Shown: positions 1,206-49,793, counted from the first letter of the stretch. The stretch is DNA of 64,000 nt from an uncultured Candidatus Rokubacteria bacterium (GCA_963758635.1 CAVWWD010000011.1:134510-198509); one strand, 5' to 3'. Made by a program: numbers and translations. Notes: generated from the sequence alone by a model not told the origin.

Positions 1206-1241
1206 GCAGGTATTCTACCTGGCCGGACGCTGGCCGGGGGC

Positions 1242-2427
1242 TCAGTAGGGCTCGCGGACGAAGATGAACGTGGTGCCGGTCACGATGGGCGCGCTGGCGC
1301 CGACGAACGAGACGTTCACGTCCTTCACCTGACGCTCCCCCGCCCGCCCCGACGCCTGGAGCGCGCCCTCGATGATGTGCCAGAGCCCGTGGATGCGCCC
1401 GGTGCTGAGGCTCCCGCCGAAGGTGTTCAGCGGCAGGTCACCGTCGAGCTCGATCCGGCCGTCCTGGATGAAGTCGAGCGCCTCGCCTTCCTTGCAGAAC
1501 CCATACGACTCGAGCCCGTAGATCACGGAGGCGGAGAAGCCGTCGTAGATCTGGGCCACGTCCACGTCGGCCGGCCCGAACCCCGAGCGCTCCCACGTGA
1601 GCTTGGCGGAGCTCTTCCCGCCCTCCATGTAGCTCGACAGGCTGCCGATGCGCCCGGCCACCTCGAAGTGCAGGCGCTGCCCGTAGCCGGCGAGGTACGC
1701 GGGCCGCGGGGCGAGGTCGCGCGCGCGATCCGCCGTGGTCAGCACGATGGCCACCGCTCCCTGCACCGGGATGTCGCAGTCGTAGAGGCAGAACGGGTAC
1801 GCGACCATCCGCGAGTCCAGGTAGTCCTGCACGGTGAGCGGCACCTTGTGGAAGTACGCGTGCGGGTTCATGTGACCGTGCCGGCGCTGGGTGACGGCGA
1901 GCGTCGCCATCTTCTCCCGGCTCTGCCCGTGCCGCTCGAGCCAGCGCGTGTAGGCCACCGCCATCCCCTGGCCCGGTCCGCCGAAGCCGTACGGGGCCGT
2001 GAACTGCGTCGCGCCGTGCGCCTGGGCGCCGGGCAGGTTCTGGTACGTGCCCTTCGGGTTGTGCATCGCCCGCCACACCACCGCGTACTTACACACGCCG
2101 GCCAGGAGCGCGTTGACCGCCTGCTGCACGGCGCCGCCGATGTTCACCGTCTCGAGCTGCACGTGCCAGGCGAGGCTCGGGAGCTTCAGCATCGCCATCA
2201 TGCAGTTCACGGACACGATCGTGACGCCGTCGATCACCGCGTGCCCGGTGGCGGGCAATTCGGGATAGGTCGCGAGCCCGTCGATATCCGCCATGGCGAG
2301 CCCCGAGTCCGCCACCGCGCCGCTTGACCGCCTCCAGCGCGTGGGCGGCGAGCGGGACCTCCGCCGAGCGCGTCACCTTCGAGTACCCCACCCCGCTGAC
2401 CGCGACCTTGCATCGGTGCTCCCACAT
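1242..2427 (-). CDS. thiolase-like protein (SCP-x/DitF type, DUF35-partnered), frame interrupted
   Basis: ORF 1242..2315 carries the thiolase-like body. The N-terminus MWEHRCKVAVSGVGYSKVTRSAEVPLAAHALEAVK is in the frame of ORF 2089..2427. The frames join near 2316-2320 (..EAVKR/VADSGLAMADIDG..) if one nt is removed. Confidence 0.75.
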
Positions 2428-2445
2428 GGCGTGGCTCCCCGTCCC

Positions 2446-2880
2446 CTACGACGCCGTCCGCGCCAGCCGGAACTGGGGCAGCGTGATGTCCTCGTTGAGC
2501 GGCTCGAACACCACCTCCACGCGGCGACCCACCTTGGCCTCCGTGTACGGGGCGTCGAGCAGGTTGCCGGCGAGGAGCGCGCCCGGCGCGTCGTCGAGCT
2601 CCACGATGATGCTCGCGTACGGGATGGCCGAGGCGAACCGCCGGTCGCCCGCGTGGTACATGATCGTGTACGCGTAGATCGCGCCCTCGCCGCGCACCGG
2701 CTCGAACGCGAGGTCGATCCCCATGCAGCTCACGCACGTCGGGTACGGCGGATGCTGGAAGTGCCGGCACGTCTGGCAGCGCTGGATCGCGAGCACGCCC
2801 CGCTTCGCCGCCTCCCAGAACGGCTTCGTCCACTCGTTCGGGACGGGGATCGGTCGGGTGACCTGGCTCCAATCGCTCAT
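2446..2880 (-). CDS. Zn-ribbon/OB-fold protein (DUF35 family)
   Basis: 144 aa. CQTCRHFQHPPYPTCVSC zinc ribbon followed by an OB-fold-like C-terminus. Usual upstream partner of SCP-x-type thiolases. Confidence 0.8.
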   Translation of the reverse strand: MSDWSQVTRPIPVPNEWTKPFWEAAKRGVLAIQRCQTCRHFQHPPYPTCVSCMGIDLAFEPVRGEGAIYAYTIMYHAGDRRFASAIPYASIIVELDDAPGALLAGNLLDAPYTEAKVGRRVEVVFEPLNEDITLPQFRLARTAS

Positions 2881-2883
2881 CTG

Positions 2884-3472
2884 CTACCGCGGGGCCTCCA
2901 CCGCGTCCGACGGGAGCGCCACCATCCGGACATCGAGCCGACCGTGCGGATGCCCGTACGTGATCACCTGCCGGCCGTCCGCCGACTCGGCGGCGAAGTG
3001 CGAGATCGGCCCGAAGAACTGCGCGATCTCCTCGGCCGTGCACGTGGGCAGGTATGCGCGCAGCACGCGGGGATCGTAGAAGCGGAACACCAGGATCCGG
3101 CCGCGCGTGTCCCGCACCCGGAGCAGCGTGCGGAAGTGCCGCCGCTGCCGCTGGAGCGTGACGTTCCGGCGGCACGATCGTGATGATCCCCCAGCTCTGG
3201 CCCCAGCCCGCGTCGATGAGCTCGGCCGTGAACCCCGCGCCGGGCGTGAGGTGCACCAGGTACGGCGCCGCCGCTTGCAACGCAGGCGCGAGCGTGCCCG
3301 CATACAGGCAGGCGTGCTCGAGGCCGCTCGCCCGGATCATTGGCTCGATCCGTCGATCCCGGGCGCCGTCGAGGAGCGCGTAGACGTGGCGCGCCCGCGG
3401 CAATCCCCCTTGCGGCCACAGGTGCGCGACGAGGCCCCGAGCGCCGGCCGCGCTCAGCCGACCCTCATTCAC
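2884..3472 (-). CDS. DUF4123-like protein (T6SS effector-chaperone family), frame interrupted
   Basis: GTG 3472 preceded by GGGAGG. N-half (VAHLWPQGG..VYALLDGARD..PYLVHL..GWGQSWGI) lies in the frame of ORF 2234..3772. C-half (RHFRTLLRVRDTRGRILVFRFYDPRVLRAYL) is ORF 2884..3303. A +1 shift near 3170 joins them. The FRFYDPRVLR motif is typical of DUF4123. Confidence 0.6.
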
Positions 3473-4085
3473 CGGCGGCCTCCCGGGCCTTCTCGCACGC
3501 CGCGCAGAACGGCACGCCGCTGACCGCCGCTTCCTCCAGCACGGCGGCCTGTCGCACGTGATCCACGCGCTCGGCCAGCTCGCCCATTGCGGGAAGGGCC
3601 GGTGCCTCGGGCGCCACCGGCGGTCGGAGCCGCGGGACGGGCACTTGCGGGACCCGCACCGCAGCGACGGGAGCGGGCGGCGGTGATGGGGGAGGGGCCG
3701 CCTGCTCCTCCCACGTGCCGAGCACCGGGGGCCCGAGCACGGGCACCATGACACACAGCGCTCGCTGCGCAACGAGGCCGGCGACGAGATCCAGCACTTG
3801 CTGATCGTCGAGCTGGAGCGTGGTGACGCCCTCGCGCAAGGCGATGCCCCGCAGCGCCAGCATGGTGTCGGAGTGGAAGAGGCCGCCGCGCAGCCAGCCG
3901 GCCGCCGCGTCCGCGCTCGTGATGGCCAGGCAACGGAGCTGGCGCCGATCGGACTCGCGCGCGGCCACGTCGATCGCTCGGAACGGACAGGCGGACGCCT
4001 GCTCGGTGCAGGGCCGGATCTCCCCGGCCCCGCACGGCACCGATTCTCCGCCGCTCGCCTGCCGCCTCCCGCCCCCCGGTGTCAT
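3465..4085 (-). CDS. hypothetical protein with Pro-rich linker and C-terminal GVPFCAACEKA tail
   Basis: The ATG at 4085 forms an ATGA overlap with the stop of the upstream lipoprotein gene. 206 aa taken from the C-terminal part of ORF 3465..4763. No family recognised. Confidence 0.5.
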   Translation of the reverse strand: MTPGGGRRQASGGESVPCGAGEIRPCTEQASACPFRAIDVAARESDRRQLRCLAITSADAAAGWLRGGLFHSDTMLALRGIALREGVTTLQLDDQQVLDLVAGLVAQRALCVMVPVLGPPVLGTWEEQAAPPPSPPPAPVAAVRVPQVPVPRLRPPVAPEAPALPAMGELAERVDHVRQAAVLEEAAVSGVPFCAACEKAREAAGE

Positions 4086-4594
4086 GGCCGGTCCTTGCTG
4101 ACGATCCGGAGCGTGTCCGCGGCGCGAATGTCGGCCCGGTCCCCGCCGACCTTGACGCTCGCCACGAGGGTGACCTCGGCCAGGAGGTCGACGTAGCGTC
4201 CGCCGAACTGCTGGAGCTCGCTGCTTTTGATGACCCACTCGATCACCACCGACTGCCCCGGCGCGATGGGGGTGAGCTCCTCCATCAGGTCCTCGTCGGC
4301 GGGATTCGTCCGCAGATAGGTCTCCTTCTTGGTGCGGGCGTCGATCAGCCGGATGATGGGACCCTTCTTCTGGACGTAGCGCAGCGGGAACCCGATCTCG
4401 GCGGCGTGATCGTTGATCACCCCGATGTCCAGGAACATGTCCTGCCCGGTGAAGCGGCAGTCGGCGTCCCGGCACGTGGCGCGAACCCTGACCGGCTGGA
4501 CGTTCATCCCCGTGTCCTTCCCCTGCCCGCACGCGCCGACGAGCGCGGAGGCGGATAACAGCGCGAGGGCGCCGACAGCTAGCGGATGGTGCAC
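4082..4594 (-). CDS. lipoprotein (candidate immunity protein)
   Basis: 170 aa. Signal peptide + lipobox (ALLSASALVGAC). GTG start overlaps the end of the upstream metallopeptidase gene by 16 nt. Confidence 0.6.
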   Translation of the reverse strand: MHHPLAVGALALLSASALVGACGQGKDTGMNVQPVRVRATCRDADCRFTGQDMFLDIGVINDHAAEIGFPLRYVQKKGPIIRLIDARTKKETYLRTNPADEDLMEELTPIAPGQSVVIEWVIKSSELQQFGGRYVDLLAEVTLVASVKVGGDRADIRAADTLRIVSKDRP

Positions 4595-5371
4595 GTAATC
4601 TTACGCCCGAGCTTCGCCGTGAGCAGTTCCTGGACCTCGATCGCGACGTACCAGGCGTGCCGCGGCAGCGTCGTCGTGTTGTTGGTCGACGACATGATCG
4701 TGGCGTCGGCGGCGGTCTTGGGCTTGGAGGGCGGCGCGGAGATCGCCGCGTCCAGGGTGCCATCCGGCTTGTAGTACTTCACCGTCTCGGTGTCGGCGGT
4801 GTACGAGTACTCGTCGGGCAGGCCCACACAGTGGCCGAACTCGTGCGCGTACGTCCAGTCGTCCGTCGTCTTCGAGACGTTCCATCACGGCGCCGGTGAC
4901 ACCTTCGCGCGGATAGGTCTGGTGGACCTTGAACGTGTAGTGATGGCCCGACGCCACGTAGAGGATCTTGTACTTGATCGTGAACGACTTCTTGCCGCAC
5001 GTGGGATCGTCGGCGTCGAGCGTGAACTTCCCGTCCCAGTGCGTCTTGACGCCGTTTTCCAGCTTGGTGTGGGCCGCCGTCACGTCCGCCGCGGTGACGC
5101 CGGTTTGCGCCTCGTCCTTGAATCGGACCTCCACGGTGATCGCGTTTCCGGACTTGACCGGCGCGTAGATCTTGTACTGCACGTTGTCGGTGTACGCGTG
5201 AGCCGTGCCGTCCTTCTTGTACGGCTGGCTGTATCGCCCGTAGGACGGGGTCGAGATCTCCTTCTCGTAGTCGTCGACCCAGCACTCCTTGCACTCGACC
5301 GTGGTCTGCTTGACCGGGTCGCCGCATCCGGTGCCCGTCGACGGCGCGGCGGGAGTGTCCCGGGCCCCCAC
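4579..5371 (-). CDS. zinc metallopeptidase-like protein (HEFGHxxGLPDEY motif), frame interrupted
   Basis: ORF 4601..5371 provides the N-terminal two thirds. After removing one nt near 4870 the reading is ..GAVMNVSKTTDDWTYAHEFGHCVGLPDEYSY.., continuing into ORF 4579..4827. No signal peptide. GC is visibly lower than in the flanks. Confidence 0.65.
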
Positions 5372-5450
5372 TTAGCGAGCCCCGCGCATCAGACTAATGC
5401 CGAGCGGTGGGATTGTAGAGGCCCGTGGCGGTTACCGTATTCTGCGAGGA

Positions 5451-6221
5451 TCATTGGCGGTCGCCCTCCGCGTTACGGAGCACGGCGTCGAGCCAGATCA
5501 GGGCGCGGCGCTCCAGCCTGACGGCGACAGCGTCTGGGTCGCCCAGGGTCGGTCGATTCAGGGTCCGCGACACCCACGGCAGCAGTGGATCGGCGTCGAA
5601 ATCGTGGCCGAACGCGAAGCCCAGGACGGCCATGAGGGCGAGGGAGCGCGCGGTCCGGAAACGGTAGCGCTCCCGCCCTCTCGCCAGCAGCGCGCGGACG
5701 AGCCGCCGCAGCGCGTCCTCCCCGGTGGCCGCGACCTTGCGCGGGTGGATCTCCGCCATCAGGGCCAGGAGATCTGGCTCCAGCCGTTCCCGGTGGAGCG
5801 CGAGTCCCTGCCGGCACCGCGTCGCGAGCTCGCGCAGCGCCTGGAGCGTGTGGACGTTGTCCGGCCCATCCACGCCGGCCAGGTACTCGTGAACCCTGGC
5901 GTGGAGCGTCTCCGCCCGGTCCATCTGCTCGTCCGGTGTCGCCAGGATCGCCGCGGCCCAGGGGTACTGCGGATCGCCATCGAAGCCGCTGCCAAGGAGG
6001 ATCATCATGTCGACGTACAGGCGCACGGGCCCGCGCTTCGTGAAGCCGTGCGTCTCGGCCCGGACCACGCCCCCCAGGACGGCCGCGTGGAGCTCCTCGT
6101 CGCTCAGGGTCTTGCACAGGTGCGGTGAGAACGTCCGGCAATGGGCGGCCAGCTCGTCGACGTAGCGGTGTACGGCGTCGTCCTCGAGGGCCGTCAGCTG
6201 GGCCTCACGGATGACGAGCAT
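5451..6221 (-). CDS. hypothetical protein with internal duplication
   Basis: 256 aa. Two related modules (..GFTKRGPVRLYVDMMILLGSGFDGDPQYPWAAAIL.. and ..RFRTARSLALMAVLGFAFGHDFDADPLLPWVSRTL..). Starts 3 nt after the aldolase stop. Confidence 0.6.
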   Translation of the reverse strand: MLVIREAQLTALEDDAVHRYVDELAAHCRTFSPHLCKTLSDEELHAAVLGGVVRAETHGFTKRGPVRLYVDMMILLGSGFDGDPQYPWAAAILATPDEQMDRAETLHARVHEYLAGVDGPDNVHTLQALRELATRCRQGLALHRERLEPDLLALMAEIHPRKVAATGEDALRRLVRALLARGRERYRFRTARSLALMAVLGFAFGHDFDADPLLPWVSRTLNRPTLGDPDAVAVRLERRALIWLDAVLRNAEGDRQ

Positions 6222-6224
6222 GCT

Positions 6225-7004
6225 TCAGCCCGCGCCGGCCGCGGCCCGCCGCGCTCTCTCGAGGTACGCGGCGCTGCCGTGCTGGAGGAGGCGGCCCACG
6301 CTCGAGTGGAAGTACCGGACGCCGAGCCCGAGGAACTTGGGGATGAGGTCGTCGGGGCAGCTGCACCCGGCGATGCGCCCGGCGGCGGTGATGATGTTCA
6401 CACCACGCTCCATCATCCGCTGCACCTCGGGGTGCGCCTGCTGGCCGGTGTAGCCCATGGACTGCGACAGGTCGCCCGACCCGATGAAGAACACGTCCAC
6501 CCCCGGCACGGTGACCATCTCGGGAAGGTTGTCGATCGCCTCCACCTCTTCCAGCATCAGGCACACCAGCGTCTCGCGGTTGGCCTGCTTCGCGTAGTCC
6601 GCGGTGGTGCCCTTGAAGCCGTACCCGGCGGGGCGGCCGCCGCTGAAGATGCCGCGGTGGCCCTCGGGGCCGTACTTCACGGCGTCCACGGCGGCGCGGG
6701 CCTCCGCCGCAGTGTTGACGTGCGGCACCTGCACGCCCCACGCGCCGCGGTCCAGGAAGGGCGCGATGATCTCCGGCCGGTTCCCCACCGGGCGCACGAT
6801 CGGGGCCATGCCGGTGAGCTCGGCGGCGGCGATGCACGCCTCGGCGGTGTCCACCGTGATGGAGCCGTGCTCGTTGTCGAGCAGGATCCAGTCGAAGCCG
6901 AGGCAGCCCAGCATCTCGACCACGGCGGGCGACGGGAAGGTGCACATGACGCCGAAGGCCGGCTTGCCGGCCTCGAGCGCGCGCTTGAGCGTGTTCTCTC
7001 TCAT
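6225..7004 (-). CDS. HpcH/HpaI-family aldolase
   Basis: 259 aa. LLDNEHG, VRPVGN and EEVEAIDNLPEM blocks are typical of 2,4-dihydroxyhept-2-enedioate-type aldolases. Confidence 0.85.
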   Translation of the reverse strand: MRENTLKRALEAGKPAFGVMCTFPSPAVVEMLGCLGFDWILLDNEHGSITVDTAEACIAAAELTGMAPIVRPVGNRPEIIAPFLDRGAWGVQVPHVNTAAEARAAVDAVKYGPEGHRGIFSGGRPAGYGFKGTTADYAKQANRETLVCLMLEEVEAIDNLPEMVTVPGVDVFFIGSGDLSQSMGYTGQQAHPEVQRMMERGVNIITAAGRIAGCSCPDDLIPKFLGLGVRYFHSSVGRLLQHGSAAYLERARRAAAGAG

Positions 7005-7259
7005 GGCTCACCTCGCCGGCGCTCCCAGCGTGCCGGCAACTCTCGCCGCTCCGGCTCTTCGTCGGGCGAGGCCATCGCGAGGAGAATCTGCCGAAAGCCC
7101 CGCGCCGTCAAGCGCGCCGCCGCGCCGCTCCTCGTTCCGGCATCGCCGCCGCCTTGACACGTCGGCGTCCGCCGCCGCACGATCGACGAGGCGGCTCGGC
7201 CGGGCCGGCTCGACGCGACCCGCGTCCTCCACGCTCGATGACCAGAGGAGGAGATCGAC

Positions 7260-7727
7260 ATGATCCCACTCGACATCAACGGCAAGCGGCAGAACGTGGA
7301 CCTCCCCGGGGAGACCCCGCTCCTGTGGGCGCTCCGTGACGAGGTCGGCCTCACCGGAACCAAGTTCGGCTGCGGCATGGCGCTGTGCGGCGCCTGCACC
7401 GTGCACCTCGACGGGCAGCCCGTGCGCTCCTGCATGACCCCCATCGCGGCGGCGACGGGCAAGAAGGTCGTCACCATCGAGGCGGTGGGCGCGGCGCCGA
7501 TCGGCCGGGCGCTCCAGAACGCGTGGGTCGACCTCGGCGTGCCCCAGTGCGGCTACTGTCAGGCGGGACAGATCATGTCCGCCGCCGCGCTGCTCGCGCG
7601 CAGCGCGAAGCCGACCGACAAGCAGATCGACGAGGCCATGAGCGGCAACATCTGCCGCTGTGGCACGTACACGAGGATTCGTGCCGCCATCAAGCAGGCG
7701 GCGGCCAAGCAGGGGGCGGCGCGATGA
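7260..7727 (+). CDS. (2Fe-2S)-binding small subunit of a molybdenum hydroxylase
   Basis: 155 aa. [11 protein letters not shown] and CGYCQAGQ / CRCGTY cysteine clusters (CoxS/IorA type). Confidence 0.9.
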
Positions 7728-7797
7728 GCGCGCGGGGGGACGGACGGCGGTCCCGGACGCGGCACCGGGCGCCGAGCGCGCGCTGATCGTCGCCAAC

Positions 7798-10058
7798 GTG
7801 AGCCGGCGCCACTTCCTCCAGGGGATGACGGCGCTCGGCGGCCTCGTGCTCGCGGTGGGGTATCCCTCGGCGGCGCGCGGGCAGGAGGCCAAGAAGTACG
7901 GCGCGGACGGCATGCCCAACGGCTGGGTGGACAGCCCGTTGGTCTTCGTGTCGATCGCCGAGGACGGCACGGTGACGATCGTCTGTCACCGGTCGGAGAT
8001 GGGCCAGGGCGTGCGCACGAGCATGCCGATGATCGTGGCCGACGAGCTCGAGGCCGACTGGAAGCGGGTGCGCATCGCGCAGGCCCCGGGCGACGAGAAG
8101 CGGTTCGGCAACCAGGACACCGACGGCTCCCGCAGCACCCGGCACTTCTTCGAGCCGATGCGGCGATGCGGCGCCGCGGCGCGGATGATGCTGGAGGCCG
8201 CCGCGGCCGAGCGCTGGAAGGTGCCGGTGGCCGACGTGCAGGCGCAGAACCACGAGGTGGTGCACCGGCCCACGGGGCGGCGGCTCGGCTACGGCGCGCT
8301 CGCGAAGGCGGCCGCGGCCCAGCCGGCGCCGGCGCGGGACACCGTGCGCCTCAAGGACCCCGCGAAGTTCCGCTACATCGGCAAGGGACAGCTCAAGCTG
8401 GTCGACGGCCGCGACATCGTGACGGGCAAGGCGCAGTACGGCATCGACACGCGGCTGCCCGGCATGCTTCACGCCGTGATCGCGCGGCCGCCGGTCCACG
8501 GCGGCAAGGTGGCAAGCTTCGACGCCGCCGAGGCCCTGAAGGTGCCCGGCGTCGTCAAGGTGGTGCAGGTCGAGGAGAGCCCCCCGCCCGCGCACTTCAA
8601 CCCGGTGGGCGGCGTGGCGGTGATCGCACGCAACACGTGGGCGGCCATGCAGGGGCGCCGCGCCCTCAAGATCACGTGGGACGACGGCCCGAACGCGGTC
8701 TACGACTCCGCGGCGTACAAGGCCTCGCTGGAGGACTCGGCGCACAAGGCGGGCAAGGTCGTCAGGAACGACGGCGACTTCACGGCCGCGGCTGCGAGCG
8801 CGGCGCGCCGGGTCGAGGCCGAGTACTACATCCCCCACCTGGCCCACGCCACCATGGAGCCGCCCGCGGCGACGGCGCGCATCGAAGGCGGCAAGTGCGA
8901 GCTCTGGGGCTGCTTCCAGTCGCCGCAGGCCGCGCGCGACCTGGTGGCCAAGCGGCTCGGCATGACGCCCGACAACGTGACCGTGCACGTCACGATGCTG
9001 GGCGGCGGGTTCGGCCGGAAGTCGAAGTGCGACTTCGGCATCGAGGCGGCCGTGCTCTCGCGCGCGATGGACGGCAAGCCCGTGAAGGTGACGTGGACGC
9101 GCGAGGACGACCTGCACAACTCGTACTACCACACGGTCTCCGTGGAGCGCCTCGAGGCCGGCCTGGACGCGCAGGGCAAGACCGTGGCGTGGATGCACCG
9201 CACCGTGGCGCCCACCATCTTCTCCACGTTCGATCCCACCGCGAAGCACGAGGCGGCGCTCGAGCTGGGCATGGGCGTCATCAACGTGCCGTTCGCGATC
9301 CCGAACATCCGCATCGAGAACCCCGAGGCGATCGCCCACACGCGGATCGGCTGGTTCCGGTCCGTCTCGAACATCCCGCACGCCTTCGCCATCCAGTCGT
9401 TCGTGGCCGAGCTGGCCGCCGCCGCGGGGCGGGATCCCAAGGACGTCCTGCTGGACGTGATCGGGCCCGCGCGCCAGGTGAGCCCGGAGGCGCTGGGCGA
9501 CACCTGGAACCACGGCGAGTCGCCGGAGCGCTACCCGGTGGACACGGGCCGGCTGCGGCGCGTGGTCGAGGTGGTCGCGCGCGAGTCGGGCTGGGGCAAG
9601 ACGCTGCCGAAGGGCCGCGGGCTCGGCATCGCCGCGCACTACAGCTTCGTCAGCTACATCGCCGCGGTGGTGGAAGTCGCGGTGGACAGCGCGGGCGCGC
9701 TGACGATCCCCGGGTCGACATGGCGGTGGACTGCGGCGCCACCGTGAACCCCGACCGGGTGCGCGCGCAGATGGAAGGCGCGTGCGTGATGGGCGTGGGC
9801 ATCGCCACGGTCGGCGAGATCAGCTTCAAGCACGGGCGGGTCGAGCAGGACAACTTCAACACCTACGAGGTGACCCGCATGGACGGCGCCCCGCGGGAGA
9901 TCCGCGTGCACATCGTCCCCGGCGACTACGCCAAGCCCATGGGCGGCGTGGGCGAGCCGGGGGTGCCGCCCATCCCGCCCGCGCTCTGCAACGCGATCTT
10001 CGCGGCCACCGGCAAGCGGATTCGCCGCCTGCCCATCCGCGATCAGCTCAAGGCGTAG
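7798..10058 (+). CDS. molybdopterin-binding subunit (aldehyde oxidase / isoquinoline oxidoreductase beta type), frame interrupted
   Basis: Twin-arginine signal [15 protein letters not shown] at GTG 7798. The body is in ORF 7660..9747. The last ~115 aa (..[25 protein letters not shown]) are in the frame of ORF 8166..10058. The junction at the C-run ~9705-9712 needs one extra nt. Confidence 0.85.
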
Positions 10059-18071: not shown

Positions 18072-19298
18072 ATGGACTTCCGCCTCACCGAGGCGCAGCG
18101 TGAGCTGCAGGAGCGCGCTCGCCGTCTCTCCCGTGACTTCGCCACGCGCGCCGCACAGCACGATCGCGACGCGACCGACCCGTTCGAGAACTACGCCGCG
18201 CTCCACGACGCCGGCTTCTACGCGCTCAACGTGCCGCGCGAGCTCGGCGGCGCCGGCGTGGGGCTGCTCGACTGGTCGCTAGCCGCCGAGGAGCTGGGTC
18301 AGGGCTGCGCATCGACGGCGCTGTCGTTCAACATGCACCTGTCCGTGGTGGGGCCGGTCATGGAGAGCCCGCGGGTGCCGGCGGCGGTCAAGGAGCGGCT
18401 GGCCAAGATGGTGGCCCAGGACGGCAAGCTGATCGGCGGCAACTTCTCCGAGCCGACCACCTCCGGGCTGGTCGCCACGCCGGCGCCGCTCACGCGGGCG
18501 CGTCGGGCGGACGGCGGCTACCGCATCACCGGCCGCAAGGCGTTCGCCTCGATGATCGCCGCGGCCGACTACGTCATGGTGATGGCGTACCCGGACGAGG
18601 CGACCTCGCCCACCGCGGCCATGCTGCTGCTGGTCCCGCCGGACGCCCCGGGACGCCGCGTCGACCGCGTATGGGACACGCTGGGCATGCGCGCGACGCG
18701 GAGCGATTCCATGGTCCTCGAGGACTGCTGGGTGCCCGAGGAGGCGCTGCTGTACCGGTCGGACGACATCGTCCCGTTCCGTCGCGACGGCGCCAACTGG
18801 TTCTGGGCCTCGTACACGCCGGTGTACCTGGGGATCGGCGTGGCCGCGTACAACGCGATCGTGGACAACGTGAAGGCGCGCACGCCGCCCGGCTTCTCCC
18901 AGCCCCTCGCCTACCACCCGGACGTGCGCCGCCACGTGGCGGAGATGAACGCGGACCTGGAAGCGGCGCGGCTCCTCACGCTCCACTCGGCCTGGCTCAG
19001 CGACACCGAGGGCCCGACGCCGGCCACGCTCGCCGCGCTCTATCGCGCCAAGTTCGCGGTCGGCGAGGCCGTGACCCGCGTGACCCGCACCGCGATGACG
19101 CTCGGCGGCGCCCACGCGCTGTTCAGGACATCGCCGCTCGAGCGCTACTTCCGGGACGGGGCGGTGGCGCCCGTGCAGTTCCCTCCCCGCGACTTCTGCC
19201 TGACCACGCTGGGCATGCTCGCGCTCGGTCTCGACCCCCGCGACGTGCTGCCGCCGCTCCGGAGCGACCGCGCGGACGCCGGGCCCACCGTGCGCTGA
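18072..19298 (+). CDS. acyl-CoA dehydrogenase family protein (intact copy)
   Basis: ATG 18072 within ORF 17904..19298. MDFRLTEAQRELQERAR.., WDTLGMRATRSDS, TLGGAHALF. Its 3' 870 nt recur at 31159-32030 and, internally deleted, at 34617-34809. Confidence 0.9.
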   Translation: MDFRLTEAQRELQERARRLSRDFATRAAQHDRDATDPFENYAALHDAGFYALNVPRELGGAGVGLLDWSLAAEELGQGCASTALSFNMHLSVVGPVMESPRVPAAVKERLAKMVAQDGKLIGGNFSEPTTSGLVATPAPLTRARRADGGYRITGRKAFASMIAAADYVMVMAYPDEATSPTAAMLLLVPPDAPGRRVDRVWDTLGMRATRSDSMVLEDCWVPEEALLYRSDDIVPFRRDGANWFWASYTPVYLGIGVAAYNAIVDNVKARTPPGFSQPLAYHPDVRRHVAEMNADLEAARLLTLHSAWLSDTEGPTPATLAALYRAKFAVGEAVTRVTRTAMTLGGAHALFRTSPLERYFRDGAVAPVQFPPRDFCLTTLGMLALGLDPRDVLPPLRSDRADAGPTVR

Positions 19299-19338
19299 CC
19301 GCCCCCGTCCCGACATAACCGCCCACACTCGGACGCTC

Positions 19339-31025: not shown

Positions 31026-31157
31026 CAGCCGTCGTTGGCCCGCGCGAGGGAGCCGGTGTGGGCGTTGCCCAGCATGGAGCCGAAGGCGAAGATCGTCTCG
31101 TACTCCGCCATTTTGGCCTCGAGGCCGGCGAGCTCCCCGTCGCGGATCTCGTACTGC
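31016..31157 (-). pseudogene. unidentified gene fragment abutting ACAD copy 2
   Basis: The minus strand reads ..KQYEIRDGELAGLEAKMAEYETIFAFGSMLGNAHTGSLARANDG..*. Composition is protein-like, and it is cut at its N-terminal side exactly at the repeat boundary (31158/31159). Confidence 0.3.
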
Positions 31158-31158
31158 T

Positions 31159-32030
31159 TGGCGGCAACTTCTCCGAGCCGACCACCTCCGGGCTGGTCGC
31201 CACGCCGGCGCCGCTCACGCGGGCGCGGCGGGCGGACGGCGGCTACCGCATCACTGGGCGCAAGGCGTTCGCCTCGATGATCGCCGCGGCCGACTACGTC
31301 ATGGTCATGGCGTACCCGGACGAGGCGACCTCGCCCACGGCGGCCATGCTGCTGCTGGTCCCGCCGGACGCCCCGGGACGCCGCGTCGACAACGTATGGG
31401 ACACGCTGGGCATGCGCGCGACGCGCAGCGACTCCATGGTCCTCGAGGACTGCTGGGTGCCCGAGGAGGCGCTGCTGTACCGGTCGGACGACATCGTCCC
31501 GTTCCGTCGCGACGGCGCCAACTGGTTCTGGGCCTCGTACACGCCGGTGTACCTGGGGATCGGCGTGGCCGCGTACCACGCGATCGTGGACAACGTGAAG
31601 GCGCGCACGCCGCCCGGCTTCGCCCAGCCCCTCGCCTACCACCCGGACGTGCGCCGCCACGTGGCGGAGATGAACGCGGACCTGGAAGCGGCGCGGCTCC
31701 TCACGCTCCACTCGGCCTGGCTCAGCGACACCGAGGGCCCGACGCCGGCCACGCTCGCCGCGCTCTATCGCGCCAAGTTCGCGGTCGGCGAGGCCGTGAC
31801 CCGCGTGACCCGCACCGCGATGACGCTCGGCGGCGCCCACGCGCTGTTCAAGACGTTGCCGCTCGAGCGCTACTTCCGGGACGGGGCGGTGGCGCCGGTA
31901 CAGTTCCCTCCCCGCGACTTCTGCCTGACCACGCTGGGCATGCTCGCGCTGGGCCTCGACCCCCGCGACGTGCTGCCCCGCTCCGGAGCGACCGCGCGGA
32001 CGCCGGCCCCACCGTGCGCTGACCGCCCCC
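31159..32030 (+). pseudogene. 5'-truncated second copy of the ACAD gene 3' region
   Basis: Starts at ggcggcaacttctcc (= 18435 in copy 1) and runs to ..gtgcgctgaccgcc. By eye there are about two dozen substitutions (e.g. R->N, N->H, S->A changes) and a 1-nt deletion at 31975-31980 that shifts the last 14 codons. Confidence 0.85.
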
Positions 32031-32087
32031 GGCGAAGGACGGACGCGTCGCCTCGGCCTCTTCGGGCCGACGCACACGGGCTGGCGT

Positions 32088-34573: not shown

Positions 34574-34616
34574 GTTGGGCGCTGTGACCTCTCGCTAGAC
34601 TTCCCGTAGACCTCCC

Positions 34617-34809
34617 GGCGGCAACTTCTCCGAGCCGACCACCTCCGGCCTGGTCGCCACGCCGGCGCCGCTCACGCGGGCGCGGCGGGCGGACGGCGGC
34701 TACCGCATCACCGGCAAGAAGGCGTTCGCCTCGATGATCGCCGCGGCCGCGTGCTGCCACCGCTCCGGAGCGACCGCGCGGACGCCGGCCCCACCGTGCG
34801 CTGACCGCC
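34617..34809 (+). pseudogene. third, internally deleted mini-copy of the ACAD 3' region
   Basis: Same left end (ggcggcaacttctcc..) for ~130 nt up to ..atgatcgccgcggcc, then jumps to the last ~60 nt (gtgctgccaccgctccggagcgacc..gtgcgctgaccgcc). Retains both ends of the 870-nt repeat. Confidence 0.8.
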
Positions 34810-34854
34810 GCGGCGCGCCGGGCCCGGGCGGCGCTGGACCGCCCGCGACGGCCG

Positions 34855-36526: not shown

Positions 36527-37954
36527 CTACCGGCCCGGCGCCAGCCGAGTCGCCAGGAGCTCCAGGATGTACTCCCGGTTCTGCTGCACCACCTTGGCCG
36601 CGGAGACGGCGAGCAGCTCCCGATCGCAGGCCGAGGCCACGTAGAACCGGGTGGGGATCTCGGCGAGGCGCTCCACCACGTCCGCCGCCGACTCGAGGCG
36701 CGGCTCCTCCCGGCGGCACGCCTCGGGCAGGTCGCTCAGGTCGTCCCGCCATTTGGCGTCGGTATGCCGGAGGACGACGATGCGCATCGTGTCGTTGTCG
36801 GGGAAGACGCCCTCGAGCTGGAGGCTCCGCCAGAAGAACGCGGCGTAGGTGCCGGCGCGCTCCTCCATGATGCTGGGGATGCGCGAGAAGTCATACGTCA
36901 GGAGCGAGAACGGCTGGGCCCGTAGGCTGAGGCGTCGCTCGCCCACGTCGAAGGGAAACGAGCTGTCGAAGGTGATGATGAGGCCCCGGCGGGCCTTCTT
37001 GTCCTGGAGCTTCTTGAGGAACACGAAGAGGAGCGTCTCGATGCCGGCGTTCTCGTAGAGCCCGCCGTCCCCGAAGTGCCAGTAGCGCTTCTCGCCCTCC
37101 ACGCGGATGGTGAACGGGCCCACGAGCGGCGGGAAGGAGGCCGAGCCGGCCACGGCGCCGGCCACCCGGAACTCGCACGGGTCGATGTGCAGGTCGTGGG
37201 GGGTCAGCGCCAGCACCCGCTGCCAGCGCCGCTCGAGCCACGGGGAGATGTCGGCGGGGAGGCCGCGCTGAGCCAGCGACCGCCGCAGGTCCACGAAGAA
37301 GTCGTAGCGCGAGTCCTCGGACGGGACCGTGGTGATGACGAACCGCCGGCCGTTGTTGAACAGGGTCGTGTTGAACATCATGTGGGGGCTGTCGCCGCGC
37401 ACCTCCCGGGCGAGGAGATCGGCGAACTTGCCCGTGCCGAGCAGGCGTTCCTCGAGGATCTCCCGGAGGGAGCGGGCGGCGAGGGCGGAGTCGAGCCAGC
37501 GGAACGTGCCGAGCTGGCGCCAGAGCAGCGCGCCCTCGAAGTCCTGGCTCACCAGCTCCCGGAAGCGGCCGAAGAACGCCCGGTACTCCTCGGTGAGGGT
37601 CCCGGCCGGGGTGAGCATGGGCGTCTCGCGCGGCGGCTTGTGCTTGGCGAAGTACGCCGCCGGCAGCCCGCCGCCGGACACGCTGGAGACGTACATGACG
37701 CGCTCCAGCACGGACCCCCCGCCCGGCGCGGGGAGGTTCGCGAGCGCCTCGAGTCCGGCCTGGCCGAAGAGCGCCGCCCGGCTCCCCCCGCCCGAGAGGG
37801 CCAGCCCCACCAGGAGGTCCGCGTCGGGGGCGGCGGCGGTGCAACTCGTGTCGGACGCGGCCCGGGGCAGCGTGATCGACAGCGGCGCGGCGCAGCCGAC
37901 GAGGAGTATGACGAGGACGGAGAGAACCGAGAACCGGCAGGGCGACAGGCTCAT
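36527..37954 (-). CDS. patatin-like phospholipase, lipoprotein
   Basis: 475 aa. GGGAGGAG RBS. Lipobox ILLVGC. Oxyanion LSGGGSRAA, nucleophile region VSSVSGGG, catalytic-Asp motif FGDGGLYEN. Confidence 0.85.
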   Translation of the reverse strand: MSLSPCRFSVLSVLVILLVGCAAPLSITLPRAASDTSCTAAAPDADLLVGLALSGGGSRAALFGQAGLEALANLPAPGGGSVLERVMYVSSVSGGGLPAAYFAKHKPPRETPMLTPAGTLTEEYRAFFGRFRELVSQDFEGALLWRQLGTFRWLDSALAARSLREILEERLLGTGKFADLLAREVRGDSPHMMFNTTLFNNGRRFVITTVPSEDSRYDFFVDLRRSLAQRGLPADISPWLERRWQRVLALTPHDLHIDPCEFRVAGAVAGSASFPPLVGPFTIRVEGEKRYWHFGDGGLYENAGIETLLFVFLKKLQDKKARRGLIITFDSSFPFDVGERRLSLRAQPFSLLTYDFSRIPSIMEERAGTYAAFFWRSLQLEGVFPDNDTMRIVVLRHTDAKWRDDLSDLPEACRREEPRLESAADVVERLAEIPTRFYVASACDRELLAVSAAKVVQQNREYILELLATRLAPGR

Positions 37955-38900: not shown

Positions 38901-38938
38901 CCCGGGGCGACCGATTCGGGCAGCTTCGCTGACCGCCG

Positions 38939-40491
38939 ATGGCTCACGTGTTCGTCTGCTACGATCGCGAGGATCGCGATTTTGCCGAGGTCGTCCAGGC
39001 CAAGCTGGAGAGAGCGGGCCACAAGACCGCTATGGACCTCGATATCCTGAGCGCGGGAGACGACTGGCAGGCCACGCTCGACCTCGCCATCCGAAGCTCC
39101 GACGCCATCGTGGTCATCATGGCGCCCGAAGCACGAGCGTCCGATTACGTCGCGTACGAGTGGGCCTTCGCGCTCGGAGCGGGTGTGAAGGTGATTCCGC
39201 TCGAGCTCAGGACGACTCCGTTTCCGCCTCGGCTGGATGGCCTGCATCGTCTGGACTTCACGGGGAAGAGCCGGCCATGGGACACGCTTCTGGCGGAAGT
39301 GGCGCGAGCAGAGGCCAGCCGCCCGGCATCGAGCATCGCGATTGATCCGGGCACGCCCGCTGCTGTGACGCAGGCGGTGCGCGCAATCGACAGCCTCGTT
39401 CCCGAGGAGCGACTCGCGGCGGTCAATACTCTCGCTCAGACGGACCACCCAACAGCTCTCGACGCTCTGACGCGCGCCCTCGAACATCCCGTCAAGGACG
39501 TCCGCGTCGCGGCGGCGAGCGTGTTCCCCGACCGTACGAACCCAAAGATCGTCCCCGGTCTCATCGAGGCCCAACGGGACGAGTGGGAGACGTGGTTCAA
39601 GCGTGGGATGTTCGGCAACCCGCCGAACCGGCTCTACGAAGGCGTCACCAGGCTTGGAGCGTCCGCCGTCCCCGGCCTTTTGGACGCCTTGAAGCGGCTC
39701 GGCGTCGAACCGGGCACGCATGACCAGTTGCGTCGGGTACTCCTCCAAGCCCTCGGGAGGACCAGGAGCGCCGCGGCATTACCCTCGCTTCAAGAGGCCC
39801 TGCAGGATGAGGACGCAGACCATCCGCCGGGTTGCCGCCGGTGCTCTCGGTGAGCTCGGAGAACCGGCTGGGGCACCCGCTCTTCGGCTAGCCCTGGCGG
39901 ATCCACACGGCGGCGTTCGGGGCGAGGCCGCCGAGAGCCTGGGTCTTCTGAAAGACGCCGCGGCCGTTTCAGACCTCATCGAGTTTCTCCAGAACGATAC
40001 TCCGTCAGTGCGGGCCACGGCGGCGGCAGCGCTGGGAAAGATCGGGGACCCGTCATCGGTGCCGGGGCTCATCGTTGCGCTGGGAGACGAGGACTACAGC
40101 GTGAAGAAGGCTGCCGTTGAGGCGCTGGGACGCCTCGGTGACGCGGCGGCGATTTCACACCTGAGGCCGCTGCTGAATCAGCACGATACTGGTAACGTCA
40201 CGGAGATGGATATGGAGGTCATGACGGCGCTGGTGCGACTGCACGATACTGAGTCTTTGACGGCGATTGGGGACCGCCTTATCAGCTTCCGAGGTGGCAC
40301 CTACGGAGGTGACGTGTACGAGGAGTTAGTGCGATATAGGGATGAAGGCGTCCAGGTGCTCCTCCGTATCCTGAGCAGTGCGGAACACGCTGTCTGACGC
40401 CATTCAATCAGAAGCGGCCAAGGCGCTCGCCTCTATCCGCACCCCCGAAGTCGTGAGTGCGGTGAAGGCCTGGAGGCGGAAACACGGCTGA
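38939..40491 (+). CDS. TIR-domain protein with C-terminal HEAT (PBS-lyase-type) repeats, frame interrupted twice
   Basis: N-terminal TIR ([64 protein letters not shown]). HEAT repeats (VRVAAASV.., [50 protein letters not shown]). Frames join at ~39815 and ~40395 when one nt is removed at each. The final repeat ..[30 protein letters not shown] ends at 40491. Confidence 0.75.
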
Positions 40492-40649: not shown

Positions 40650-40734
40650 TGCGTGCCTTATACCGCGCCGGTGCGGGGGATCATAGAGCCCGGCCAGGCG
40701 GGGAGCCTCGCGCCCGGGCAACGGGTATCCGGCC

Positions 40735-41115
40735 CAGATGGGCCCCGGCGCGTTGAACCGCCGTGACCATGTCCGTCGGCCCGCCGTCAATGCCGCGCGC
40801 GCGAGCACCGCGCCGGTACGCGTCGCCCAGCACGCGCGTATACACGCGCAGAACTGCGCGGCTCGGCCCGTGATTCCACGCCATCTGGTAGCGCAGCCCA
40901 TACGGTACCGTCAGCACCCATTGCCGCACCGGCACCCACGGCAGCACCTCATCCACCAGGTGCGCCGCCCGCTCCGTCATCCGCCGGCCCCCGCAGCTCG
41001 GACAGAAAGCCCCGGCCCTTAAACGAAAACGGCGCCAGGTGCTCGCGCCGGCGCGTCGGCACGCCTCCGGCTTGACCGTGGCCAGGAGACCGGCGCAGCG
41101 ACCGAGTAGCCGGGG
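40735..41115 (-). mobile_element. IS91-family (rolling-circle, Y2) transposase remnant
   Basis: ..CRRCGREHLAPFSFKGRGF/CPSCGGRRMTERAAHLVDEVLPWVPVRQWVLTVPYGLRYQMAWNHGPSRAVLRVYTRVLGDAYRR..MVTAVQR. Zinc-binding + start of the catalytic region only, with one internal frameshift. Both ends are missing. Confidence 0.65.
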
Positions 41116-41199
41116 CGAACGCACTACCCCCGCCTTATGACCTGCGTCATATGAGGGCCGGCCGGCCGGCGGTAGCCTGAGCGACAGGGAGGTAGCGCC

Positions 41200-41466
41200 A
41201 TGGCTCACGACTGCAACTGTCACCGCAACGCACCAGCCGACACCGCCCGCGTCCTCGCCCGGCCGAGCCCCGAGGACATCGTGGGCGAGATCGCCCATCG
41301 ACACCCCGGGGCTCTCGAGACGCTCCGGGCGATGGGCATCAACCATTGCTGCGGGGCTCATCTGACGCTGCGCGAGGCCGCGGCGGCGGCCGGCGTGCCG
41401 CTGGAGGCGCTCCTCGCCGCGCTCGCGGAAACGCCGGAACCATCCGCATGTTCCCGGACGACATGA
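41200..41466 (+). CDS. DUF542 / ScdA N-terminal-domain protein
   Basis: 88 aa. GGGAGG RBS. IVGEIAHRHPGALETLRAMGINHCCGAHLTLREAAAAAGV. Confidence 0.75.
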   Translation: MAHDCNCHRNAPADTARVLARPSPEDIVGEIAHRHPGALETLRAMGINHCCGAHLTLREAAAAAGVPLEALLAALAETPEPSACSRTT

Positions 41467-41470
41467 CGAC

Positions 41471-42073
41471 ATGACGATGGCCACGCTCCCTGACCGTGAC
41501 CCCGGAAGCCCCGGATCGGGCCCGTCGAGGACGCGCGACGCCGGCGGGCCCCCGTCCGCGCTCGGCGCCGTGCCCGAGGCGCGGCGGACGCATCTGGACG
41601 TGCGCGATGACATCCGGCGGGGCGAGGAGCCGCTCGGGCGCATCCTGGCCGCCGTCCGGACCCTCCCCGACGACCACGTCCTCGTGGTGCGCGCGCCGTT
41701 CGAGCCGGTGCCGCTCTACCACGTCCTCGGCAAGCGCGGGTTCCGCCATTTCACCGAGCGCCACGCCGGGGATGACTGGACGGTGCTCTTCTACCGCGAG
41801 GCCGGCCCGACGCCCGCGCCCTCGACGGCGGCGCCTGCCGACGCGGCCGGGCCGCTGCGGGTCCTCGACGTGCGCGGCCTCGAGCCCCCCGAGCCCATGG
41901 TGCGGGTGCTCGAGGAAGCGGAGAGGCTCGGTCCGGGTGCGCTCCTCGAGGTGCGCCACGACCGCCGTCCGACGTTCCTCTACCCCCAGCTCGACGAGCG
42001 CGGCCTCGCTCACGAGACCGACGAGCCGGAGCCCGGCCTGGTGCGCATCCGCATCCGGAGGCCGGAGGGCTGA
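41471..42073 (+). CDS. DUF2249 domain protein (two copies)
   Basis: 200 aa. LDVRDDIRRGEEPLGRILAAV..LVVRAPFEPVPLYHVL and LDVRGLEPPEPMVRVLEEAERL... Confidence 0.75.
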   Translation: MTMATLPDRDPGSPGSGPSRTRDAGGPPSALGAVPEARRTHLDVRDDIRRGEEPLGRILAAVRTLPDDHVLVVRAPFEPVPLYHVLGKRGFRHFTERHAGDDWTVLFYREAGPTPAPSTAAPADAAGPLRVLDVRGLEPPEPMVRVLEEAERLGPGALLEVRHDRRPTFLYPQLDERGLAHETDEPEPGLVRIRIRRPEG

Positions 42074-49466: not shown

Positions 49467-49573
49467 ACGACCGTGCCATCCGAACCTGAGACACCGCGAC
49501 GCGGCGCGGCGCGTTGACTCTCTGCGGAGCCGGGTCCTATACTCCGTGCGCGATTGAATTGCGAGCCGAGCCG

Positions 49574-49741
49574 CAGGCGAGGCGAGCGCATCCGGAAATG
49601 CAGTGGAACCAACCGTCAACCTCGCTTGGCAGGCGAGGCGAGCGCATCCGAAAATGCAGTGGAACCAACCGTCAACCTCGCTTGGCAGGCGAGGCGAGCG
49701 CATCCGGAAATGCAGTGGAACCAACCGTCAACCTCGCTTGA
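49574..49741. repeat. 3 x 56-bp tandem repeat
   Basis: Unit caggcgaggcgagcgcatccggaaatgcagtggaaccaaccgtcaacctcgcttgg at 49574, 49630 and 49686, with one mismatch in each of units 2 and 3. Each unit contains GCGAGG..CCTCGC arms. 56 is not a multiple of 3. Confidence 0.85.
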
Positions 49742-49793
49742 CAGGCGGGCGCCGCGGCGGCTCGCGAGCGCGGACGCGCGAATGGAGGAAGCG

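Follow-up and report, generated by a model that had tools for sequence, protein, structure and literature searches.

A probable orphan type VI secretion effector cassette with a separately encoded docking tail, inserted in a catabolic operon of an uncultured Rokubacteria bacterium

Results

Five closely spaced genes interrupt a catabolic operon

The window analyzed here is a 64,000-nt stretch of DNA from an uncultured Candidatus Rokubacteria bacterium (GCA_963758635.1, CAVWWD010000011.1:134510-198509); its host is a soil bacterium of Candidatus Rokuibacteriota (Methylomirabilota). Between a gene for an HpcH/HpaI-family aldolase and a DUF35/thiolase pair lie five minus-strand genes, here named A to E, which encode a helical protein of two related modules (A), a putative zinc peptidase (B), a lipoprotein (C), a protein that ends in a docking tail of the VgrG/PAAR type (D), and a short DUF4123 protein (E) (Table 1). 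An initial annotation of the window had placed five coupled genes at 2884-6221 and suggested that they could be an orphan effector island of a type VI secretion system (T6SS) set into a catabolic operon. All five were found at those coordinates with the spacings that had been given: A and B are separated by 79 nt, B and C overlap by 16 nt, C and D share an ATGA at 4082-4085, and D and E overlap by 8 nt. The junctions with the operon are equally tight, with 3 nt between the HpcH stop and the start of A and 3 nt between the stop of E and the start of DUF35.

The flanking genes were identified in part through two related contigs, L001, a 9.1-kb JGI metagenome contig, and L120, a contig from a metagenome-assembled genome of Methylomirabilota. 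In the window the aldolase matches NCBIfam HpaI (E-value 9e-50, under the equivalog cut-off), and Pfam HpcH_HpaI was called on the L001 and L120 orthologues; the identities of DUF35 and the thiolase were likewise taken from Pfam calls on these two contigs. L120 carries the order ABC_tran-HpcH-DUF35-thiolase, and its HpcH and DUF35 genes overlap by an ATGA, which is the empty site. Its blastn alignment to the window flanks (87-89% nucleotide identity) runs to position 6229 and resumes at 2881. Because this relative has an empty site in which HpcH and DUF35 overlap, the five genes are an insertion, placed base-precisely between HpcH and DUF35; it begins 6 nt before the ATG of A and ends 2 nt past the stop of E. 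Neither flanking direct or inverted repeats nor an integrase were found at the cassette ends. The occupied site is common to the window and L001 (98% identical). A metagenome scan with HpcH recovered 80 loci with orthologues (85-92% identical), of which 0 of 80 carried the cassette and 0 of 80 had DUF35/thiolase downstream; these loci had first suggested a rearrangement instead of an insertion, a view overturned by the empty site in L120. The same empty site bears out the insertion proposed in the initial annotation, and contradicts the possibility raised there that the cassette is part of a conserved catabolic operon. No promoter-like site was found in the cassette, the A-B spacer included, and no convincing terminator within the insert, so that read-through from the operon promoter is the simplest expectation.

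In their annotated frames, genes A to E have a G+C content at third codon positions (GC3) of 0.86-0.93, versus 0.97 in the flanking genes, which shows that all five are coding and written in the codon style of the host. Each has homologues elsewhere. L001 is 98.1% identical to window positions 1232-9497, with the same gene order and every gene intact, and relative to it the ratio of nonsynonymous to synonymous polymorphism (pN/pS) is 0.15-0.17 for B and C, from very few changes. The dip in G+C over the peptidase region noted in the initial annotation was reproduced (0.62-0.66 versus about 0.72). As B has a G+C content of 0.54 at first codon positions and a GC3 of 0.93, with a sequence rich in Lys, Tyr, Thr, and Asp, the dip is attributed to amino-acid composition and not to foreign codon usage; low G+C as a mark of foreign DNA or recent import was ruled out by the GC3 of B.

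Table 1. Features of the cassette and its flanks, in window coordinates
Feature	Coordinates	Strand	Remarks
HpcH/HpaI-family aldolase gene	6225..7004	(-)	Upstream flank; first gene of the minus-strand operon
Inserted cassette	2882..6228	(-)	3347 nt in place of 8 nt of the empty site (L120 alignment)
Gene A	5451..6221	(-)	256 aa
A-B spacer	5372..5450	(-)	79 nt; sole non-coding stretch of the cassette; read from sequence
Gene B, putative zinc peptidase	4579..5371	(-)	263 aa after repair; extra A at 4880 in the window
Gene C, lipoprotein	4082..4594	(-)	170 aa
Gene D	3465..4085	(-)	206 aa
D tail (residues 168-206)	3468..3584	(-)	GELAERVDHVRQAAVLEEAAVSGVPFCAACEKAREAAGE; VgrG/PAAR-type helix-turn-helix docking motif with Cys pair
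Gene E, short DUF4123 protein	2884..3472	(-)	195 aa after repair; extra A at 3164 in the window
Downstream flank	1242..2880	(-)	DUF35 (zf-ChsH2/OB), 2880-2446; SCP-x-type thiolase, 2427-1242

Gene B encodes a metzincin-like peptidase that is found fused to VgrG and PAAR proteins

Searches with B returned 157 homologues, mostly about 265 aa in length and without a Pfam domain, many of which are labelled 'VgrG' by JGI. The zinc motif, HEFGHCVGLPDEY (HExxHxxGxPDEY), had been read in the initial annotation together with the FRFYDPRVLR motif of E, and both are present in the window. In a comparison of 24 homologues, His176, Glu177, His180, Gly183, and Asp186 were invariant, as were Met226 (ATIMS) downstream of the zinc motif and four Cys residues. 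The protein has no signal peptide. An AlphaFold2 model (predicted local distance difference test score, pLDDT, 89.7) has a beta-rich N-terminal half, and in Foldseek searches of the PDB the top matches were all metzincins (ADAMTS-5, fragilysin, astacins, and matrix metalloproteinases), although weak ones (E-values of about 1e-3, template modelling (TM) scores of 0.2-0.37); the sole match among PDB sequences was the motif of snapalysin. Against the curated profiles, B stayed under the cut-offs of Peptidase_M6 (19.6 versus 22 bits), Reprolysin_5 (14.9 versus 27), and TIGR03296 (27.2 versus 110.8). By motif and model, B is thus assigned to an unannotated, metzincin-like family.

The contexts in which this domain occurs connect it with the T6SS. 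Fusions of B to PAAR are encoded by P0071, P0075, P0077, and others, with Pfam PAAR_motif called in P0077, and PAAR-B fusions of about 370-390 aa occur in Lysobacter and Stenotrophomonas loci (L017, L025-L028). B is also fused to evolved VgrG proteins (L019, L022, L024, L026), of which that of L019 matches Pfam Phage_GPD, T6SS_Vgr, and DUF2345. In Acidobacteriota and Verrucomicrobiota, stand-alone B is encoded in loci of the form vgrG-DUF4123-PAAR-A-B(x1-3)-C; in L002 the order is tssF-tssG-clpV-vgrG-DUF4123-PAAR-A-B-B-C. A vgrG, PAAR, or DUF4123 gene lies upstream of A-B-C in ten loci, and the full series from vgrG to C is present in seven. The domain is therefore seen in three delivery modes: VgrG fusion, PAAR fusion, and stand-alone. 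Together, the fusions and the loci adjoining tssF, tssG, and clpV bear out the proposal that the peptidase is a T6SS effector, and B is predicted with high confidence to be a T6SS toxin domain.

In L002 (9156-10801) and L004 (10001-12544), two or three paralogous B genes, 65-75% identical, stand in tandem ahead of just one C gene, which raises the question of whether one immunity protein serves for all of them.

Gene C encodes a lipoprotein linked to the peptidase

The product of C has the lipobox LVGAC, with the signal MHHPLAVGALALLSASALVGAC|GQ read by motif. For the linkage of B and C, 32 genome loci were fetched, 28 of which cover most of B and continue beyond it. A homologue of C was found directly downstream of B in all of these (28/28), each with an N-terminal hydrophobic export signal and several with a lipobox. 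C has no Pfam match and no match among solved structures, potempin included. The initial annotation had likened the peptidase and the adjacent lipoprotein to an effector/immunity pair, and this constant linkage to an exported partner agrees with it: C is likely the periplasmic immunity protein for B. Trios of A-B-C, or Tap-A-B-C sets (Tap denoting the DUF4123 adaptor), also occur without vgrG in L006, L011, L121, and L123.

In one locus, L013, B is joined to a peptidoglycan-binding domain of OmpA type, and a LysM/PG_binding_1 gene adjoins it. The export of C homologues, the invariant Cys residues of B, and this fusion all point to a periplasmic target of B, in the cell envelope.

Genes E and A resemble the two parts of a split adaptor

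With the extra A removed, E matches Pfam DUF4123 (PF13503) at 105.6 bits against a cut-off of 25.8 (E-value 2.4e-30), covering profile positions 1-119 of 119 with residues 30-151, and so its earlier designation as DUF4123-like passes the Pfam gathering threshold. It also has a weak NCBIfam match to Tla1, and its cluster includes an NCBI entry annotated as a DUF4123 protein from Candidatus Rokuibacteriota. The protein is short (195 aa; its L002 homologue has 169 aa) compared with bilobed Taps of about 290 aa. DUF4123 adaptors use their conserved N-lobe to bind a helix-turn-helix tail at the C terminus of VgrG (Colautti et al. 2024, PMC11582642), a tail that follows an unstructured linker and has a conserved Cys pair, and the variable helical C-lobe binds the effector (PMC11582642). 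TecT and co-TecT represent the two lobes as individual proteins, of which TecT binds a C-terminal extension of PAAR4 (PMC11582642). E is encoded beside the effector, with B 1.1 kb upstream in the cassette, and its homologues precede A-B-C in nine loci (L002, L004, L005, L007, L008, L010, L012, L016, L018). In the window no vgrG lies immediately upstream of E; the upstream gene is D, which has only the tail of VgrG type. The departure from the classic vgrG-DUF4123-effector order that had been remarked on is thus real.

Gene A has 89 homologues, none with a Pfam domain. Its model (pLDDT 93.6) is all-helical, with 13 helices. The two related modules described in the initial annotation were recovered, as the halves match each other by BLASTP (E-value 6e-5) and LGSGFDxDPxxPW occurs twice. 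In 13 loci A is the gene immediately preceding stand-alone B, whereas loci with B fused to VgrG or PAAR have no A; since it accompanies only the stand-alone toxin, a role in loading and not in immunity is indicated. No sequence match and no significant fold match to A were found in the PDB. A local Foldseek match was obtained to the adaptor Tap3 of the Tap3-Tke5 complex (9r8g_B; probability 0.97, 113 columns, root-mean-square deviation 2.6 Å, E-value 2.5). With moderate confidence, A is probably a co-adaptor for stand-alone B.

Fusions of FHA, a Pro-rich linker, and DUF4123 are encoded near B-C or A-B-C in L013 (11681-12607) and L121 (11886-12905); such a fusion would be another tether for an adaptor, possibly to a phosphorylated partner.

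Gene D belongs to a family of free-standing docking-tail proteins

Homologues of D found with a word-index search were near-identical copies only. Exhaustive HMMER searches yielded a family of 141 representatives, most of 180-210 aa, which align end to end at 30-45% identity. Members begin with an N-domain of about 100 aa, in which Cys and Leu/Arg positions are conserved; a linker rich in Pro follows, and then a tail whose consensus, QAxxLExAAxxGVPFCExCEKAR, is almost invariant. D has no Pfam family, with neither PAAR_motif nor a Phage_GPD/Phage_base_V body detected. When the family was aligned with VgrG by hhalign, the tail alone matched, over the last 34 columns (probability 95.8%, E-value 8e-9), and the N-domain was unrelated; against an alignment of PAAR proteins, the match was again confined to the tail, which was found on two PAARs. 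The same tail stands at the C terminus of VgrG in L012 (...SGTPFCAICEKLRKE), L016, L002, and L005, and at the end of the L007 PAAR (...APFCEECEKAKAAQN). The size of the family, its alignment, and the restriction of the hhalign match to the tail led to the rejection of D as an orphan open reading frame (ORF) or a 3' remnant of vgrG. Of the two proteins left without a function in the initial annotation, A and D, both proved to exist and can now be described as conserved accessory proteins, D having a VgrG/PAAR-type docking tail.

In every case the tail-bearing gene adjoins a short DUF4123 gene, as VgrG(tail)-Tap, PAAR(tail)-Tap, or D-Tap. L008 and L018 have the order D-Tap-A-B-C, and the roughly 8 kb upstream gave no match to VgrG. 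The window has D-Tap, and the reverse order, Tap-D, occurs in L118, L119, and a 55-kb Rokubacteria-like JGI contig. Overlaps of 4-8 nt between the Tap and D genes were seen in four contexts. In this sample D and a tail-bearing VgrG or PAAR share 0 loci. The simplest reading, held with moderate confidence, is that D would supply in trans the docking tail needed by E.

In the 55-kb contig (P0430, 9445-10570), the DUF4123 and D genes overlap by 8 nt and are flanked by genes for an amino-acid ATP-binding cassette (ABC) transporter and for a thioesterase, and 1.2 kb downstream of the pair is a gene for a PLDc_2 protein. Two relatives of D, P0233 and P0239, carry four to six tandem tail motifs (...AAxxGTPFCEECEKAR...) and could bind several adaptors together.

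The broken frames of B and E are most likely errors of assembly

As written in the window, B and E are each split by a +1 frameshift. The initial annotation only hinted at breaks, near 3170 and 4870; comparison with L001 confirmed both and located an extra A at 3164 (E) and 4880 (B), each in the identical context GGA[A]CGTC. Protein analyses of B and E were performed with the repaired, frameshift-corrected sequences. B is intact in L001, whose copy is 99% identical, and D and E are intact in two short-read Logan contigs, L035 and L037 (99.7% identical), from which the extra A at 3164 is also missing. A second, fragmentary and error-prone contig from ENA has other lesions at exactly both sites, B being cut after ...GAVMDV and E reading PPQTVTL instead of the expected PPDVTL. 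Of five GACGTC sites of L001 that align with the window, four are changed there (3164, 4880, 3998, and 2285-2286). Nor are B and E alone: relative to L001 the thiolase gene has an extra C near 2322, and besides this a GC3 frame scan of the 64 kb gave about nine further candidate frameshifts, at places that include approximately 9700, 46040, 46260, 51980, 55060, 57550, 58030, and 58970 (frame switch without a stop). The indel rate is roughly 1 per 5-6 kb, and gene calls in the window are unreliable for this reason. The G+C content of the genome is 71%.

Rather than gene decay, the broken frames of B and E most likely reflect errors in the consensus of a long-read assembly. The shared context suggests motif-specific errors of long-read basecalling, perhaps at a methylated AatII-type GACGTC site. 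Programmed +1 frameshifting at the shared GGAACGTC was considered and rejected, as near-identical contigs read straight through without the extra A.

T6SS genes and other features of the window

No VgrG or PAAR was found in the 64-kb window by tblastn, and no T6SS Pfam family among its GC3-supported coding segments, the remaining ORFs having been inspected by eye only. Within these limits, the earlier statement that the window holds no T6SS core gene was confirmed.

Several features of the window are recorded here for completeness. Positions 472-1231, a segment of 760 bp, are missing from L001, which is otherwise 94-98% identical; the segment holds two overlapping minus-strand ORFs, at 515-1027 (DUF2204 nucleotidyltransferase, Pfam E-value 9e-7) and 996-1205 (69 aa), and resembles a small insertion of toxin-antitoxin type. 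An 879-bp repeat, 97.5% identical, is found at 18429-19307 and 31154-32031, over the 3' two-thirds of an acyl-CoA dehydrogenase gene, with a third, partial copy of about 200 bp at 34616-34815. At 49573-49751, upstream of a gene for a sugar ABC-transporter binding protein, a tandem repeat of about 56 bp is present in three copies (about 97% identical). A gene for a patatin-like phospholipase (Pfam Patatin) occupies 36530-37855. At 38933-39850 and 40684-41715 there is an ORF with a TIR-like start followed by HEAT-like repeats, adjoining an IS91-type transposase-like fragment; the TIR and transposase likenesses were judged by eye only.

Discussion

Taken together, the DUF4123 assignment, the fusions and loci of B, the linkage of C, and the empty site support the orphan T6SS effector island that had been proposed from the initial annotation. 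We consider it likely that the five genes are a self-contained orphan effector cassette, inserted in a catabolic operon and loaded through a split adaptor, with frameshifts that are errors of assembly. The cassette would probably be read through from the operon promoter and translated by coupling. B, made without a signal peptide, would be delivered by the spike of a T6SS into the periplasm of a neighbour, and C would neutralize it in the producer's own periplasm. Loading would proceed via a split adaptor of the TecT/co-TecT type formed by E and A, whose contacts are proposed by analogy: E, a DUF4123 protein reduced to the conserved N-lobe, would bind a C-terminal helix-turn-helix tail with a Cys pair, and A would hold the stand-alone toxin. 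Canonical loci have this tail on the adjacent VgrG or PAAR. In the cassette, as in several more of the loci, its source would be D, and the complex of E, A, and B would presumably be linked through the N-domain of D to a spike component with its gene at another site.

A broader proposal, which we put forward tentatively and with somewhat more doubt than belief, is that the D proteins form a new class of accessory component of the T6SS, in which a free-standing tail is provided in trans on an unrelated, Cys-containing domain of about 100 aa that would attach to a generic spike or tube component. If this were true, an effector cassette would not need a vgrG or PAAR allele dedicated to it and could pass from genome to genome, and the cassette described here would be one example, inserted base-precisely in a phylum without a described T6SS. 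In a stronger form of the idea, Tap+D pairs may work without any T6SS in Rokubacteria.

A number of observations weigh against the reading of the locus as a T6SS effector cassette. Both the toxin and the adaptor gene are split in the window as written. B falls below the Pfam and NCBIfam peptidase cut-offs and its fold matches are weak; the roles given to A and D draw on gene context and one weak structural match (E-value 2.5). The pN/pS values of A, D, and E against L001 are 0.45-0.6, from few changes. T6SS core genes were not found in the 64-kb window, and the literature searched holds no report of a T6SS in Rokubacteria/Methylomirabilota. In the 55-kb contig the Tap+D pair sits by itself among genes of metabolism, and a LysM/PG_binding locus without T6SS Pfam matches encodes a D-like fusion; given this lone pair and this fusion locus, the Tap+D pair may have a role without an adjacent effector.

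The last four of these observations, together with the FHA-DUF4123 fusions near A-B-C in L013 and L121, can be claimed by an alternative in which the host makes no use of a T6SS and the DUF4123+D pair, whether or not A-B-C is present, has a different route or function, such as delivery by another contractile injection system, regulation, or sequestration of the toxin as a decoy. A delivery route of another kind had also been allowed for in the initial annotation, but is not required by the data. We regard this alternative as unlikely, because fusions of B to VgrG and PAAR exist, the tail of D recurs on proteins of these two kinds, and a tssF-tssG-clpV-vgrG cluster contains homologues of E, A, B, and C; moreover, orphan effector/adaptor operons far from the core cluster are ordinary in T6SS-bearing bacteria such as S. 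rhizophila (PMC13340143). A poorer fit still is the view of the cassette as a decaying remnant, that is, a captured piece of a vgrG island in which toxin and adaptor are pseudogenes with real frameshifts and D is the leftover 3' end of vgrG. The split frames of B and E, the lack of vgrG or PAAR nearby, the yield of only near-identical D copies from the word-index search, and the likeness of the D tail to VgrG tails would all suit it. The D family, however, counts 141 representatives, most of them full-length, with an N-domain unrelated to VgrG; A to E are all intact in L001, and D and E also in the Logan contigs; both frameshifts are the same added A in GGACGTC, with different lesions at the same sites in a second assembly; frameshifts also affect the thiolase and further genes of the window; and the in-frame GC3 is 0.86-0.93. 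On this balance decay is improbable. That A to E are functional members of the catabolic operon, acting on a pathway substrate or its uptake, as the common strand, the 3-nt junctions on both sides, and the lack of an internal terminator or promoter signal might imply, is scarcely credible in light of the directly overlapping HpcH and DUF35 genes at the empty site of a relative, the absence of the cassette from all 80 loci with HpcH orthologues, and the presence of the same genes beside unrelated neighbours in T6SS loci of other phyla.

A set of effector, immunity protein, and adaptor is in itself a known kind of system. What is new is the A-B-C trio of toxin, immunity protein, and helper, which has no family annotation, the host phylum, and above all the D family. 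How the spike chooses its cargo is an active question in the T6SS field, and here the same docking tail is borne by a small separate protein paired with a short adaptor; as D appears where no tail-bearing spike gene is present, it offers a testable model for the loading and mobility of orphan cassettes. The trio is widespread, with occurrences in Acidobacteriota, Verrucomicrobiota, Proteobacteria, and Methylomirabilota, and in the uncultured Rokubacteria it would be a first hint of contact-dependent antagonism. A weapon cassette in a metabolic operon with an empty site for comparison is a clean example of its kind, and would be expressed together with the catabolic genes. Until a T6SS has been demonstrated in the host, its practical value will stay limited.

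Comparison with known systems

The zinc motif of B, HExxHxxGLPDxY with Asp as the likely third ligand, is common to snapalysin (MEROPS M7; 1c7k, 1kuh, 4hx3). The match to snapalysin covers 19 residues (E-value 0.3), whereas B is twice as long, has a beta-rich N-terminal half, and finds its nearest folds among other metzincins at TM scores of about 0.3. Among T6SS effectors, VgrG2b of P. aeruginosa (Wood et al. 2019, as cited in PMC11148199) is described as an HExxH peptidase that acts in the periplasm and has a lipoprotein as its immunity protein. The cassette is alike in pairing an HExxH peptidase with a periplasmic lipoprotein predicted to counter it. The two peptidases are nevertheless different families; the VgrG2b structure was absent both from a profile search of PDB sequences (E-values up to 1) and from the 50 Foldseek matches listed for B.

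A nearer parallel is the orphan paar2-tse2/tsi2 operon of S. rhizophila, in which a matrix metalloproteinase-like metalloproteinase fused to PAAR is encoded with a signal-peptide-bearing immunity protein (PMC13340143). It shares with the cassette the orphan operon, the metzincin-like toxin, and the exported immunity protein, and from its description Tse2 probably belongs to the same family as B. The PAAR-B fusions of L017 and L025-L028 are equal to it in size. The fused form needs no adaptor, and neither A nor D.

In the VgrG6-Tap6-Ptx2, VgrG14-Tap14-RhsP2, and Tap3-Tke5 modules (PMC11582642, PMC12909789), as in the cassette, the adaptor gene lies beside the effector. The docking tail of VgrG-Tap modules, which follows an unstructured linker and has a Cys pair, is matched in layout by D, in which a Pro-rich linker precedes ...GVPFCAACEK. 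The Taps of these modules are bilobed and of about 290 aa or more, compared with 195 aa for E, and their effectors are MIX, Rhs, or Tle proteins, unlike B. In addition, vgrG is upstream of DUF4123 in five of five described neighbourhood types, but within the 64 kb examined here there is none.

In the P. aeruginosa PAAR4-TecT-co-TecT-TseT-TsiT module (Burkinshaw et al. 2018, as described in PMC11582642), a short, N-lobe DUF4123 protein binds the C-terminal extension of a spike protein, a co-adaptor gene lies between those of adaptor and toxin, and the toxin gene is followed by an immunity gene. E, as a short DUF4123 protein, and A would be the counterparts of the adaptor and co-adaptor, and the gene for B is likewise followed by that of its predicted immunity protein. 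According to the same description TseT is a DNase, whereas B is a putative zinc peptidase, predicted to act in the periplasm. No sequence relation of A to a named family was detected, and its likeness to co-TecT is one of context. In the PAAR4 module the tail is on the PAAR protein, whereas in the window it is on the free-standing D and the gene order is rotated to A-B-C-D-E. The order of the PAAR4-TecT module as described there is repeated exactly in L007, in which a PAAR with an ...APFCEECEKA tail is followed by DUF4123, A, B, and C.

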